This document shows positions 54,983 through 60,723 of a stretch of 64,000 bases of DNA, piece after piece (position 1 is the first letter of the stretch; every line of letters begins with the position of its first letter). Below the pieces are notes generated by a model. That model searched no databases. It was given only the letters and a program-made list of their open reading frames with translations, and was not told the origin of the DNA. A program made the translations under genes and the position numbers. This DNA is from Escherichia coli. Lineage in GTDB: Bacteria; Pseudomonadota; Gammaproteobacteria; Enterobacterales; Enterobacteriaceae. The DNA lies in NCBI RefSeq assembly GCF_046105845.1, contig NZ_CP151004.1; one strand, written 5' to 3'.

Positions 54983-55019
54983 GCACTTTTTGGACGTTTT
55001 CATCAGTCTGAGGCGTTAA

Positions 55020-55892
55020 TCAGCGTCCCTTCTTTTTACGCCCCGGCGAGGTAAAACGCTTACCGTTGGACGCCGGGCGACCGCCTTTTTCCGCCGTTTT
55101 TTCCATCTTAACGACTGGACGTTTGATGCCCGCCGTTTTCGGTTTGGTCTTCGTTTTAGGTTTTGCCTCGGAAGAGGAATTTTCGATGAGCTTAAAGAGG
55201 TCGATTAACTCATCGTCGGTTAAATCGCGCCACTCACCCAGCGGAATGCCGCTTAAACTGACGTTCATAATGCGCGTACGCTCCAGCTTTTTCACTTCGT
55301 AACCAAAGTGCTCGCACATGCGACGGATCTGACGGTTCAGTCCCTGCACCAGGGTAATGCGGAAGACAAACGGCGCTTCTTTTTTGACTTTGCACTTTTT
55401 CGTCACCGTCCCGAGGATCGGCACCCCCGCCCCCATACCACGAATAAATTCATCGGTAATCGGTTTATCGACCGTCACCAGATACTCTTTCTCATGATCG
55501 TTACCCGCACGGAGGATCTTATTCACCAGATCGCCGTGATTGGTGAGGAAAATCAGCCCCTGGGAGTCTTTATCCAGGCGGCCAATCGGGAACACGCGTT
55601 TGCTGTGGTTAACGAAATCGACAATGTTATCGCGCTCGCCATCTTCGGTGGTGCTGACAATACCGACGGGCTTGTTCAGGGCGATAAGTACCAAATCTTC
55701 GGCTTCCCGAGGCTCAATCAACTGACCGTTTACTTTCACAACGTCGCCGGGTTTCACCTGATCGCCAATGGTGGCTCGCTTGCCATTAAGGAACACATTG
55801 CCTTGCTCGATATAGCGATCCGCTTCGCGGCGTGAGCAAATTCCGCTTTCGCTGATGTATTTATTTAAACGGACTGATGAGTCGGGCAGCAT
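55020..55892 (-). CDS. rluF: 23S rRNA pseudouridine synthase RluF, 290 aa
   Basis: [40 protein letters not shown]... (S4 domain plus RsuA-type catalytic domain); basic C-terminal tail. Confidence 0.95.
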
Positions 55893-56239
55893 AAATTCTC
55901 CTGTAAAACGCGGAATATACCGTACCTCTTAGCGGGGAAAAACAGGGTTATGCGGCAACGTCGAAATTAAATGTGATCTGCCACGCCTTTTATCACAAAA
56001 GTGTCTCCGGAAGTACGATGCAAATTTGCCTGGCAAAATAAGGATAATCAACATATTACGAATCGCTGCACACCTGTGCTGATGACTACTACGCAGAGAA
56101 ACAAATGTGCAAGAGAAAGCGCTATTTCTCCCCATGCAAAGAGTGAAAAATCGCTTTGAAAGGCCATCATGATGGGGTTATATCAGATCAAGCGGTGAGA
56201 AAGCGTATTTGCACAAATGTGCAGAACCAGGAGGCGGCA

Positions 56240-57187
56240 ATGGAAAACAGTGACGATATCCGTTTGATTGTGAAGATTGCCCAACTCTATTACGAACAGG
56301 ATATGACGCAGGCGCAAATCGCGCGCGAACTGGGTATTTACCGCACCACCATCAGCCGCTTGCTTAAACGAGGCCGCGATCAGGGAATTGTCACCATCGC
56401 CATCAACTATGACTACAACGAAAATCTCTGGCTGGAGCAGCAACTGAAGCAAAAGTTTGGCCTGAAAGACGTTGTGGTGGTGTCGGGAAATGATGAGGAT
56501 GAAGAGACTCAACTGGCGATGATGGGGTTACACGGCGCGCAACTGCTGGATCGCTTGCTGGAGCCTGGCGATATTGTCGGTTTTTCCTGGGGTCGCGCGG
56601 TGAGCGCACTGGTTGAAAACTTGCCGCAGGCGGGGCAATCGCGGCAGTTAATCTGCGTACCAATTATTGGCGGACCGTCCGGTAAACTCGAAAGCCGCTA
56701 TCATGTAAACACATTAACCTACAGCGCGGCAGCGAAGTTGAAAGGAGAATCGCATCTCGCGGATTTTCCGGCTCTACTGGATAACCCCTTAATTCGTAAT
56801 GGGATCATGCAGTCTCAGCACTTTAAAACCATCTCTGCCTACTGGGATAATCTGGATGTCGCCCTGGTGGGAATTGGCTCACCGGCCATTCGTGACGGCG
56901 CTAACTGGCATGCGTTTTATGGTGGTGAAGAGAGTGACGACCTGAATGCCCGCCAGGTTGCTGGCGATATTTGCTCGCGCTTTTTTGATATTCACGGCGC
57001 AATGATTGAAACGAATATGAGTGAAAAAACACTCTCTATCGAAATGAATAAATTAAAGCAGGCACGATATTCCATTGGCATTGCCATGAGTGAAGAAAAA
57101 TACAGCGGAATTATTGGTGCACTGCGTGGAAAATATATTAATTGTCTGGTAACGAATAGCAGCACAGCTGAACTATTACTGAAATAA
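56240..57187 (+). CDS. sorC: SorC-family transcriptional regulator of the sorbose operon, 315 aa
   Basis: ATG at 56240 after AGGAGG; N-terminal HTH (MTQAQIARELGIYRTTISRLLKRGRDQGIV) plus sugar-binding domain. Confidence 0.85.
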   Translation: MENSDDIRLIVKIAQLYYEQDMTQAQIARELGIYRTTISRLLKRGRDQGIVTIAINYDYNENLWLEQQLKQKFGLKDVVVVSGNDEDEETQLAMMGLHGAQLLDRLLEPGDIVGFSWGRAVSALVENLPQAGQSRQLICVPIIGGPSGKLESRYHVNTLTYSAAAKLKGESHLADFPALLDNPLIRNGIMQSQHFKTISAYWDNLDVALVGIGSPAIRDGANWHAFYGGEESDDLNARQVAGDICSRFFDIHGAMIETNMSEKTLSIEMNKLKQARYSIGIAMSEEKYSGIIGALRGKYINCLVTNSSTAELLLK

Positions 57188-57256
57188 AAATCTTCCCGAT
57201 GTTTACCGTAATAAAAATTACGGCGGGTCCCTATTATCTAAAATCAGGAGTCTGTT

Positions 57257-58063
57257 ATGCAAACGTGGTTAAATTTGCAGGATAAAATCATTATCGTCAC
57301 CGGCGGCGCATCCGGTATTGGTCTGGCGATTGTAGAGGAATTATTAGCACAAGGCGCAAACGTACAGATGGTCGATATTCACGGTGGCGATGGTCAATAT
57401 GAAGGTCATAAAGGCTATCAGTTTTGGCCGACCGATATTTCCAGCGCCAAAGAGGTAAATCATACGGTAGCGGAAATTATCCAGCGTTTTGGTCGCATCG
57501 ACGGTCTGGTCAATAACGCCGGGGTCAATTTCCCGCGTCTGCTGATCGATGAGAAAGCGCCTGCCGGGCAGTATGAACTCAACGAAGCTGCATTCGAAAA
57601 AATGGTCAATATCAACCAGAAAGGCGTTTTTCTGATGTCGCAGGCGGTGGCGCGACAAATGGTCAAACAACATGATGGCGTGATTGTGAATGTTTCCTCA
57701 GAAAGTGGGCTGGAAGGCTCAGAAGGCCAAAGCTGTTACGCCGCGACCAAAGCCGCGCTCAATAGCTTCACGCGCTCCTGGTCGAAAGAGCTGGGTAAGC
57801 ACGGTATCCGTGTGGTCGGTATCGCGCCAGGGATTCTGGAAAAAACAGGACTGCGCACGCCGGAATATGAAGAAGCGCTGGCGTGGACGCGCAATATCAC
57901 CGTCGAGCAGCTGCGTGAAGGCTATACCAAAAATTCCATTCCTATTGGGCGCGCCGGAAGATTAGCAGAAGTGGCTGATTTTGTTTGTTATCTGCTGTCT
58001 GAACGCGCCAGCTATATCACCGGAGTAACCACTAACATTGCAGGCGGCAAAACGCGCGGCTAA
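57257..58063 (+). CDS. sorD: Short-chain dehydrogenase (sorbitol/glucitol-6-phosphate dehydrogenase-type), 268 aa
   Basis: TGGASGIG Rossmann motif; YxxxK active site (YAATKAAL). Confidence 0.8.
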   Translation: MQTWLNLQDKIIIVTGGASGIGLAIVEELLAQGANVQMVDIHGGDGQYEGHKGYQFWPTDISSAKEVNHTVAEIIQRFGRIDGLVNNAGVNFPRLLIDEKAPAGQYELNEAAFEKMVNINQKGVFLMSQAVARQMVKQHDGVIVNVSSESGLEGSEGQSCYAATKAALNSFTRSWSKELGKHGIRVVGIAPGILEKTGLRTPEYEEALAWTRNITVEQLREGYTKNSIPIGRAGRLAEVADFVCYLLSERASYITGVTTNIAGGKTRG

Positions 58064-58072
58064 GGAGGCTTT

Positions 58073-58480
58073 ATGGTCAATGCCATTTTTTGTGCCCACG
58101 GCAAATTAGCTTGCGCCATGCTGGAATCGGTTCAGATGGTTTACGGCAACGCCAATGTTGAAGCCGTTGAATTTGTACCCGGTGAGAACGCCAATGACAT
58201 TGTGGCAAAGCTGGAAAAGTTAGTGAGCATTCACAATCAAGACGAATGGCTGATTGCCGTGGATTTACAGTGCGGCAGCCCGTGGAATGCGGCAGCGATG
58301 CTTGCGATGCGCAATCCTCGTCTGCGGGTAATCAGCGGCCTTTCTCTGCCGCTGGCGCTCGAACTGGTTGATAACCAGGACAGCATGAATGTTGATGAAC
58401 TGTGTGAACACCTGACGCAAATCGCAAAGCAATCCTGCGTCGTCTGGAGACAGGTGGCAACGGCAGAGGAGGATTTCTGA
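58073..58480 (+). CDS. sorF: PTS mannose/sorbose-family EIIA, 135 aa
   Basis: MVNAIFCAHGKLACAMLESVQMVYGN... (catalytic His near the N-terminus); AGGAGG before the ATG. Confidence 0.85.
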   Translation: MVNAIFCAHGKLACAMLESVQMVYGNANVEAVEFVPGENANDIVAKLEKLVSIHNQDEWLIAVDLQCGSPWNAAAMLAMRNPRLRVISGLSLPLALELVDNQDSMNVDELCEHLTQIAKQSCVVWRQVATAEEDF

Positions 58481-58974
58481 TGAACATTACGCTCGCCCGC
58501 ATTGATGACCGCCTGATCCACGGTCAGGTCACTACCGTCTGGTCGAAAGTGGCTAACGCCCAGCGCATTATTATCTGCAATGACGAAGTTTATAACGATG
58601 AAGTTCGCCGGACATTATTGCGTCAGGCTGCGCCACCGGGAATGAAGGTTAACGTGGTCAATATTGAAAAAGCCGTCGCGGTTTATCACAACCCGCAATA
58701 TCAGGACGAAACCGTTTTTTATCTTTTCACTCGCCCACAGGATGCCTTAGCGATGGTTCGCCAGGGGGTAAAAATAGGCACCCTGAATATTGGCGGCATG
58801 GCCTGGCGGCCCGGTAAAAAACAGTTAACCAAAGCGGTTTCATTAGATGATGATGATATTAACGCATTTCATGAGTTAAATAATCTTGGCGTCATACTGG
58901 ATTTACGCGTCGTAGCGTCAGATCCCTCAATCAATATTATCGACAAAATAAACGAACAGTTAATCGCAAATTAA
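58480..58974 (+). CDS. sorB: PTS sorbose-specific EIIB, 164 aa
   Basis: MNITLARIDDRLIHGQVTTVWSK... (IIB-Man His motif); ATGA overlap with sorF. Confidence 0.88.
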   Translation: MNITLARIDDRLIHGQVTTVWSKVANAQRIIICNDEVYNDEVRRTLLRQAAPPGMKVNVVNIEKAVAVYHNPQYQDETVFYLFTRPQDALAMVRQGVKIGTLNIGGMAWRPGKKQLTKAVSLDDDDINAFHELNNLGVILDLRVVASDPSINIIDKINEQLIAN

Positions 58975-59039
58975 ATAATAGCGCCTGTGTACATATGCTT
59001 TAACAGGCAGGGATGACGACACTTAAAAGGTGACAAATC

Positions 59040-59837
59040 ATGGAAATAAGTACCCTACAAATTATTGCTATATTTCTTTTTTCCTGTATTGCCGGAATGG
59101 GCAGCGTGCTGGATGAATTTCAGACTCATCGCCCGTTAATTGCCTGTACGGTGATTGGTTTAATTCTCGGTGATTTAAAAACCGGAATTATGCTCGGTGG
59201 TACGCTGGAATTGATAGCTCTCGGCTGGATGAACGTCGGCGCGGCGCAATCTCCGGATTCCGCGCTCGCCAGCATTATCTCCGCCATTCTGGTTATCGTT
59301 GGTCAGCAAAGCATCGCCACCGGTATCGCCATCGCGTTGCCTGTGGCTGCTGCAGGCCAGGTACTGACGGTGTTTGCCCGCACCATCACCGTAGTGTTCC
59401 AGCACGCGGCGGATAAAGCAGCGGAAGAGGCGCGGTTTCGCACTCTCGATATTCTGCATGTCTCCGCGCTTGGCGTGCAGGCGCTGCGCGTTGCTATTCC
59501 GGCACTGATTGTCTCGCTGTTCGTCAGCGCCGATATGGTCAGCAATATGTTAAACGCCATTCCCGAATTTGTGACCCGAGGACTACAGATTGCTGGCGGT
59601 TTTATCGTGGTGGTCGGTTACGCCATGGTGCTACGTATGATGGGTGTGAAATATTTGATGCCTTTCTTTTTCCTCGGTTTCCTCGCAGGTGGCTACCTCG
59701 ATCTCAGTCTGCTGGCGTTCGGTGGCGTCGGCGTGATCATGGCCCTGGTCTACATCCAGCTAAATCCACAGTGGCGTAAAGCTGAACCTCAACTCCAGGC
59801 CACCGCCTCCACCGCCCTTGACCAACTTGACGATTAA
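59040..59837 (+). CDS. sorA: PTS sorbose-specific EIIC, 265 aa
   Basis: Multi-TM IIC-Man-type translation (MEISTLQIIAIFLFSCIAGMGSVLDEFQ...). Confidence 0.88.
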   Translation: MEISTLQIIAIFLFSCIAGMGSVLDEFQTHRPLIACTVIGLILGDLKTGIMLGGTLELIALGWMNVGAAQSPDSALASIISAILVIVGQQSIATGIAIALPVAAAGQVLTVFARTITVVFQHAADKAAEEARFRTLDILHVSALGVQALRVAIPALIVSLFVSADMVSNMLNAIPEFVTRGLQIAGGFIVVVGYAMVLRMMGVKYLMPFFFLGFLAGGYLDLSLLAFGGVGVIMALVYIQLNPQWRKAEPQLQATASTALDQLDD

Positions 59838-59847
59838 CGGAGCCATC

Positions 59848-60672
59848 ATGGAACAGAGAAAAATTACACGCAGCGATCTGGTGAGCATGTTTCTGCGCTC
59901 CAACCTGCAACAGGCGTCCTTTAACTTTGAACGTATTCACGGGCTGGGTTTTTGCTACGACATGATCCCCGCCATCAAGCGACTTTACCCAGTAAAAGAG
60001 GATCAGGTTGCGGCACTCAGGCGACACCTGGTGTTCTTCAATACCACGCCAGCCGTATGTGGCCCGGTCATCGGCGTCACTGCCGCCATGGAAGAGGCGC
60101 GGGCCAACGGCGCGGAAATTGATGACGGTACCATTAACGGCATCAAAGTCGGTCTGATGGGACCATTGGCAGGAGTTGGCGATCCACTGGTCTGGGGAAC
60201 GCTGCGCCCGATTACCGCCGCGCTCGGCGCATCTCTGGCACTTTCGGGCAACATTCTCGGCCCGCTGCTGTTTTTCTTTATTTTCAACGCGGTGCGTCTG
60301 GCGATGAAGTGGTATGGCCTACAACTCGGCTTTCGCAAAGGGGTGAATATCGTCAGCGATATGGGCGGGAATGTGCTGCAAAAACTCACCGAAGGCGCGT
60401 CGATTCTCGGACTGTTTGTGATGGGCGTGCTGGTCACCAAATGGACGTCAATCAACGTACCGTTGGTGGTTTCACAAACGCATGCCGCCGATGGCTCCAC
60501 CGTCACCATGACCGTGCAGAACATTCTCGACCAACTTTGCCCTGGTTTGCTGGCGCTCGGTCTGACGCTACTGATGGTTCGTCTGCTCAACAAAAAAATT
60601 AACCCGGTATGGCTGATTTTCGCCCTGTTTGGCTTAGGGATTATCGGCAATGCGCTGGGCTTCCTGTCCTGA
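59848..60672 (+). CDS. sorM: PTS sorbose-specific EIID, 274 aa
   Basis: ATG at 59848 gives MEQRKITRSDLVSMFLRSNLQQASFNFERIHGLGFCY... (IID-Man family). Confidence 0.88.
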   Translation: MEQRKITRSDLVSMFLRSNLQQASFNFERIHGLGFCYDMIPAIKRLYPVKEDQVAALRRHLVFFNTTPAVCGPVIGVTAAMEEARANGAEIDDGTINGIKVGLMGPLAGVGDPLVWGTLRPITAALGASLALSGNILGPLLFFFIFNAVRLAMKWYGLQLGFRKGVNIVSDMGGNVLQKLTEGASILGLFVMGVLVTKWTSINVPLVVSQTHAADGSTVTMTVQNILDQLCPGLLALGLTLLMVRLLNKKINPVWLIFALFGLGIIGNALGFLS

Positions 60673-60723
60673 TTCTTCGCCCCGGCACGACTGCCGGGGC
60701 CATCGCTCAACATGAGGTGGTTT

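Follow-up and report, generated by a model that had tools for sequence, protein, structure and literature searches.

The sorbose operon of Escherichia coli raises the question of what a strong GC-rich hairpin, here called H1, does in the short spacer between two of its genes, sorM and sorE. The operon (sorCDFBAME) is located on the E. coli chromosome, where it is flanked by rluF and pepE, and it contributes to the fitness of ExPEC lineages such as ST131 and ST648 (PMC12817954). The window analyzed here is the whole stretch of 64,000 nucleotides that contains the operon. In the RefSeq annotation of the best-matching genome the gene order runs from lysC-yjbD-rluF through the sor genes to pepE-yjbB-metH, and the sor genes follow one another as regulator, SDR dehydrogenase, EIIA, EIIB, EIIC, EIID, and sorE. 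The gene names are backed by the RefSeq annotation of a strain with 99.8% identity and by NCBIfam scans of the ORFs in the window. H1 stands at the sorM/sorE boundary within the sorbose operon, where a sequence-only reading of the same DNA had placed it. Among 5426 complete E. coli genomes, 2866 contained a match to an 801-nt query around the sor junction, one match each, at 93-99.8% identity. The sorB gene (EIIB) is an intact ORF of 164 aa in the window (58480-58974) and an annotated frameshifted pseudogene in the closest sequenced relative, strain WP4-S18-ESBL-07 (L001:4182-4567).

The two genes that border the spacer are encoded on the plus strand. The first, sorM, encodes the PTS sorbose EIID subunit and spans positions 59848-60672 (NCBIfam TIGR00828 EIID, E = 6e-142), which are the same limits as those of the RefSeq sorM CDS in the 99.8% identical strain (locus positions 5549-6373). 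It ends with the stop codon TGA at 60670-60672. The second, sorE, is annotated in RefSeq as L-sorbose 1-phosphate reductase (60724-61953), a name which its homologues also carry. Its RefSeq-annotated ATG start is found at 60724 and its Shine-Dalgarno (SD) sequence, GAGGTGG, at 60714-60720, both on the plus strand. This SD is near-invariant among the Enterobacterales loci examined, with AAGGTGG in locus L006. The spacer between stop and start codon therefore occupies 60673-60723 and measures 51 nt, as had been stated previously.

Further observations concern the region 3' of sorE. On the plus strand, a canonical terminator is absent (window 62055-62215). The hairpin AGCGCCttaaggGGCGCT (62067-62084), together with the A-run in front of it, forms a terminator-like site for the minus strand, and two REP-like sequences, recognized by eye, are found at about 62116-62150 and 62182-62215, that is, 160-260 nt downstream of sorE. 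The gene downstream of sorE is pepE in E. coli and a shikimate-dehydrogenase-like gene in the Klebsiella variicola/pneumoniae-type locus. The latter gene (L086:2726-3535) and the 3' end of sorE share 8 nt, so that another gene follows sorE in that locus.

H1 is a perfect 9-bp stem (60679-60700) which begins 6 nt past the sorM stop codon. Reading along the plus strand, a pyrimidine-only linker, TTCTTC (60673-60678), is followed by the 5' arm GCCCCGGCA (60679-60687), a 4-nt CGAC loop (60688-60691), and the 3' arm TGCCGGGGC (60692-60700). An A/C-rich and mostly unstructured linker, CATCGCTCAACAT (60701-60713), then leads to the sorE SD. The sequence-only reading had described a hairpin with an 8-bp GC stem; the hairpin was recovered, and the length was revised to 9 bp by an extra outer pair, G60679-C60700. 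A folding-energy check bore out its stability. RNAfold gave -20.2 kcal/mol for a 28-nt segment, far stronger than 200 dinucleotide shuffles (-9.1 ± 2.5 kcal/mol; z = -4.48), none of which was equally stable. H1 also dominates the fold of the 76-nt junction. The window as a whole has 8 perfect GC-rich hairpins with stems of 8 bp or more compared to 1.2 ± 1.0 in 100 shuffles, and such hairpins are therefore rare and non-random. Most of the other seven strong hairpins lie at gene ends, and several of them have T-rich tails. A GC hairpin poor in U-tract, TTCCCCGGTC-GCCT-GACCGGGGAA (window 3326-3349), has arms like those of H1 and is found 9 nt past the stop codon of actP (ORF 1667-3316).

The comparison set comprised 80 loci obtained through SorE homologues, to which four divergent E. 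coli alleles and the K. variicola/pneumoniae-type locus were added, and the structure alignment drawn from it contains 33 distinct variants, which represent at least 10 genera. H1 was found in Escherichia (coli, albertii, and whittamii), Pseudocitrobacter, Citrobacter, Klebsiella, Raoultella, and Enterobacter, and also in Cedecea, Mangrovibacter, Entomohabitans, a 'Serratia sp.' isolate, Erwinia, and Pantoea. It is present in all of the E. coli variants examined. Among the loci compared it is absent from those of Yersinia and of Firmicutes, and the Firmicute sor-like loci have short AT-rich spacers without a hairpin. H1 always begins 6-7 nt past the sorM stop codon in spacers of 49-181 nt, and the linker that separates the two is U/C-rich and contains no purines in all 33 variants. 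The distance from H1 to the sorE SD is not constant and ranges from 13 to about 150 nt. Because the distance to the stop codon is fixed while that to the SD varies, H1 is anchored to the upstream cistron, sorM.

The stem itself is 8-9 bp in every variant and folds with -10.7 to -19.1 kcal/mol among the 33, while the loop (3-7 nt) differs in sequence between taxa. Standard pairs fill 93.3% of the cells in the 33 variants; sliding the 3' partners by 1-3 columns lowers this share to 35-52%. In four of the nine H1 pairs both partners have changed, none of 500 shuffles reached the observed covariation score or percentage paired, and RNAalifold returns the same 8-bp consensus stem. Compensatory changes were found from G-C to A-U (E. 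albertii and Citrobacter FP75), from G-C to C-G (Erwinia and Pantoea), from C-G to U-A (Raoultella and Citrobacter MGH106), and from A-U to G-C (within E. coli); these events apparently arose independently in several lineages. Synonymous sites flanking H1 are near saturation, with 46-66% identity between E. coli and other genera at the four-fold degenerate positions of the 120 codons of sorM and sorE next to it. Since the outer stem (GCCCCG/CGGGGC) is near-invariant in the 33 variants while these flanking sites have diverged to this extent, it is under purifying selection. Moreover, G·U cells number 17 and A·C cells 3 in the same alignment, as one would expect of a structure selected in sense-strand RNA and not of an antisense or duplex DNA site. 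H1 is a selected structure of the sense RNA, tied in position to the sorM stop codon, and neither an intrinsic terminator nor a dispersed repeat.

The first of these exclusions rests on the tail of the hairpin. A GC-rich stem-loop is present, but in the tail, CCAUCGCUC, the U-tract (about 5 or more U within 8 nt) is missing. That no U-tract follows the hairpin had been claimed from the letters of the spacer, and the tail CCATCGCTCAAC agrees with this; terminator scans of both strands made no call at H1. In the 33 variants the 6 nt after the stem contain 1-4 T and never a run of more than three. As for the second exclusion, REP and other dispersed repeats were ruled out given that H1 is single-copy and without similarity to the REP consensus. 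A 60-nt query located it at exactly one place per genome in the 2866 sor-positive E. coli, and the H1 pattern has a single match in the window even with three mismatches allowed. A covariance model built from the orthologues recognized each enterobacterial sor locus once, at the sorM-sorE junction, with 28-48 bits, and the next-best match anywhere in 446 kb scored 21.7 bits. When positions 55000-64000 were compared with Rfam by cmscan up to E = 10, three chance-level matches were obtained, none of them at H1.

Outside H1 the spacers of other genera are diverse. Lengths of 68-76 nt are found in the Citrobacter freundii group, Klebsiella, Raoultella, and Cedecea, among others (loci L007-L009, L012, L015, L016, L018, L019, L026, L035, L040, and L086). 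These spacers contain a second small hairpin, CCTCgaaaGAGG or CCCCg...aaaGGGG, directly 5' of the sorE SD (e.g., L086:1470-1490). The E. coli spacer resembles the longer sequence minus this second-hairpin insert (TCAACA/TGAGGTGG), and the E. coli linker CATCGCTCAACAT is homologous to the CTACTTCAACAA stretch in the long-spacer genera. In the Klebsiella oxytoca complex, K. indica, and Mangrovibacter (L020:3345-3480; L013, L014, L021, L022, and L029) the spacer reaches 100-181 nt, with a long imperfect palindrome inserted inside the second hairpin and the adjoining H1 intact. This insert, which we take to resemble an ERIC/IRU repeat, has 1-3 counterparts in unannotated intergenic DNA of each E. 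coli genome, with about 76% identity. In Yersinia (L030-L033 and L062), within about 45 nt on either side of the sorM stop codon, a long imperfect hairpin holds this codon in its loop and is followed by 5-7 U and an AT-rich spacer. The simple terminator scan makes no call at this hairpin and its U-run, which from their sequence resemble a leaky terminator between the same two genes. The Yersinia structure suggests that the sorM-sorE boundary is a recurrent 'punctuation' site.

Published data describe the expression of the operon on sorbose. In E. coli ST131 and ST648, RNA log2 fold-changes were flat along the operon (7.36 and 5.58 for sorM, 7.10 and 5.62 for sorE; PMC12817954, Suppl. Table 10), but these values are not decisive because they are induction ratios and not coverage, so that a constant attenuation would cancel. 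SorE protein was induced by sorbose with log2 fold-changes of 2.62 and 0.58 (PMC12817954, Suppl. Table 10), SorM with 9.36 and 5.29, and SorD with 11.23 and 8.51 (PMC12817954). The protein values for SorM, SorD, and SorA span 5.3-13, and those for all Sor proteins other than SorE 2.9-13 (PMC12817954). The weak induction of SorE protein despite equal RNA induction receives no comment from the authors (PMC12817954), and the low ratio could be a detection or imputation artifact of the proteomics. It agrees with differential expression across the junction and does not imply H1 as the cause. In Northern blots with sorC and sorE probes the sorE signal peaks later, and the text gives no transcript sizes (PMC12817954). 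Loss of sorE was reported in a published sorbose study to be harmful when sorbose is present and to impair growth on it. Two recent sorbose papers mention neither a hairpin nor a terminator.

What, then, might H1 do? The sequence-only reading had taken H1 for a possible mRNA-stabilizing or processing structure that sets the transporter and dehydrogenase halves of the operon apart in expression, and this is the most reasonable proposal. The comparison bears it out in part, through selection on the sense RNA, the lack of an intrinsic terminator, and the position between the transporter genes and sorE. Our tentative preference is that it acts as a barrier to 3'→5' exonucleases in the sorCDFBAME mRNA, in the manner of malE-malF. 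An endonuclease, presumably RNase E, would first cut in the A/C-rich linker or inside sorE, after which PNPase and RNase II would degrade the RNA back toward H1 and stall there. A translatable sorCDFBAM segment would remain and outlive the sorE segment, and the amounts of transporter and SorD relative to SorE would thus be fixed after transcription. We infer both the exonuclease-barrier mechanism and its direction, that is, which segment is stabilized. GC stems of about 7-9 bp stall PNPase and RNase II in vitro. H1 is a stable structure at the 3' boundary of a cistron, inside an operon and free of terminator features, and is conserved in evolution, as 3'-protective structures often are. By our analysis it appears to fit this class in being strong, free of a U-tract, located on the sense strand just past the stretch that a terminating ribosome would cover, and part of a co-induced operon. 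Protective RNA structures which reshape operon stoichiometry by differential decay have been documented in E. coli and are often conserved across enteric genera (PMC5927463). There are also points against the barrier. The UGA↓UUY directly 5' of H1 would also fit the opposite, papBA-type model, and since loss of sorE is harmful on sorbose, the benefit of lowering sorE mRNA is not obvious. The malE-malF type is preferred over the papBA type because H1 is tied to sorM and because SorE is the least induced Sor protein in the two strains.

The papBA-type model is itself rather unlikely. Here RNase E would cut at UGA↓UUC before H1, the upstream segment would decay, and H1 would shield the sorE mRNA from 5'-end-dependent RNase E. 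RN↓WUU is an RNase E motif, and a papBA-type model of cleavage plus hairpin has been described (PMC5927463). In keeping with it, an RN↓WUU-like GA↓UUY with a conserved +2 U is found in the single-stranded linker 5' of H1 in all 33 variants, and the linker between stop codon and H1 is constant in length and purine-free. The later peak of sorE than of sorC in the Northern blots (PMC12817954) also speaks for it. However, the resemblance to RN↓WUU falls on the stop codon and on a short linker rich in U, and may be a coincidence. Moreover, the cut would leave 6-7 unpaired nt, which work on the ompA 5' stem-loop shows to be long for protection by a 5' stem-loop. Finally, the model predicts that sorE is favored, whereas induction of SorE protein is the weakest in the operon.

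A role in transcription is likewise improbable. H1 could make the polymerase pause, act with the help of a factor as a weak partial terminator that lowers read-through into sorE, or mark the endpoint to which transcripts ended by Rho inside sorE are trimmed. It looks like a terminator stem, and the position of most of the other strong hairpins in the window at gene ends, several with T-rich tails, would accord with such a role. The stop-spanning hairpin of Yersinia, with its U7 at the same junction, suggests that attenuation is useful there; yet this structure escapes the simple scan. E. coli RNA polymerase generally requires a U-tract for termination, but none of the 33 variants has one and the scans find no terminator at H1. 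The RNA induction of sorE, in addition, equals that of sorM.

It is also doubtful that H1 serves translation, either by insulating the sorE initiation region or by blocking the movement or re-initiation of ribosomes that terminate at sorM, with the result that sorE would be uncoupled. The constant spacing of 6-7 nt between stop codon and H1 would suit this role, as it is about the distance from the ribosomal A site to the mRNA entrance, and so would the strong and near-invariant SD of sorE. The induction of SorE protein, which falls far under that of its RNA when compared with the other Sor proteins, points the same way. On the other hand, the distance between H1 and the SD is not conserved, and the one specific model tried, pairing of the SD, fails. 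In the 76-nt minimum free energy structure the sorE SD is paired with the terminal codons of sorM or with the segment 3' of H1. Among 39 loci the SD was predicted to be paired with a probability of 0.5-0.96, which a shuffled linker does not lower, and it pairs with different partners in different taxa. Sequestration of the SD, and translational coupling through it, were rejected on these grounds.

Less probable still is a related proposal, that H1 is a stop-codon-proximal element which specifically restrains SorE synthesis, via a blocked hand-over of ribosomes or a sequence-specific RNA-binding factor. If true, it would explain why induction of SorE protein trails that of its mRNA in two E. 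coli lineages, and it would amount to dedicated control of the step that removes sorbose-1-phosphate.

That H1 is a chance or relic hairpin without present function, such as the remnant of an old operon-end terminator, is very unlikely: the short, AT-rich, hairpin-free spacers of Firmicute sor-like loci would be compatible with it, but compensatory changes maintain the stem in at least 10 genera while neighboring synonymous sites are near saturation, and all E. coli variants examined keep H1.

Several other candidates were rejected. An RNase III site would need about 20 bp or more of double-stranded RNA, whereas the stem is 8-9 bp in every variant. A protein-bound DNA palindrome is unlikely given arms that covary, are spaced by 3-7 nt, and tolerate G·T far more than A·C (17 versus 3); the variable spacing speaks in particular against an operator for a dimeric protein. 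Coding constraint from a 236-aa ORF on the minus strand (60003-60713) was dismissed, as this ORF runs opposite to sorM, itself well supported, and indels in the loop do not come in multiples of 3. No sigma-70-like site was found in 60500-60800 that could serve as an internal sorE promoter. The E. coli spacer is open and keeps sorM and sorE in one frame, with no stop codon between the sorM stop and the sorE start (60670-60726), and one stop-codon mutation would fuse EIID to SorE. Such an in-frame open spacer was also observed among several other spacers of 51 and 54 nt, though not generally. UGA readthrough to a SorM-SorE fusion was rejected because the spacers of other genera (49, 52, 53, 68, 73, 74, and 76 nt) break the frame; the sole predicted IID-SorE fusion protein, P0033, is a frameshifted reading.

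Returning to the exonuclease barrier, H1 looks like an ordinary punctuation mark of intra-operon mRNA, probably a barrier to decay. If it works as proposed, a single promoter would yield different amounts of the transporter and of sorbose-1-phosphate reductase. The concept of protective structures is already established, so the gain from H1 is incremental and what is new is the locus-specific case. If true, this case would be a clean, single-copy, and phylogenetically well-supported intra-operon protective structure in an accessory operon. The sor operon is missing from genome-wide decay maps because K-12 is without it.

Compared with known systems, H1 shares with REP/BIME elements the nature of an extragenic imperfect palindrome that may stabilize upstream mRNA, but each genome contains a single copy and the sequence is unlike the REP consensus. 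Like an intrinsic terminator it has a GC-rich 8-9-bp stem and a short loop directly past a stop codon; unlike one, it is without a U-tract in 33 of 33 variants, and the downstream gene of the operon is co-induced. With the papBA type it has in common an intercistronic position and a single-stranded RN↓WUU-like sequence before the hairpin, whereas its unpaired leader would be 6-7 nt and the downstream product, SorE, appears to be the least induced. Within the class of protective structures, most structures of the Dar and Sorek 2018 survey (PMC5927463) lie inside the downstream coding sequence and H1 is intergenic; the malE-malF element is a REP dispersed repeat and H1 is single-copy and locus-specific. 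Nevertheless, H1 resembles malE-malF and the structures of that survey (Dar and Sorek 2018; PMC5927463) in being a stable stem-loop without a U-tract, at a cistron boundary inside an operon and just 3' of the cistron that it would protect, with a structure that is conserved between enteric genera.
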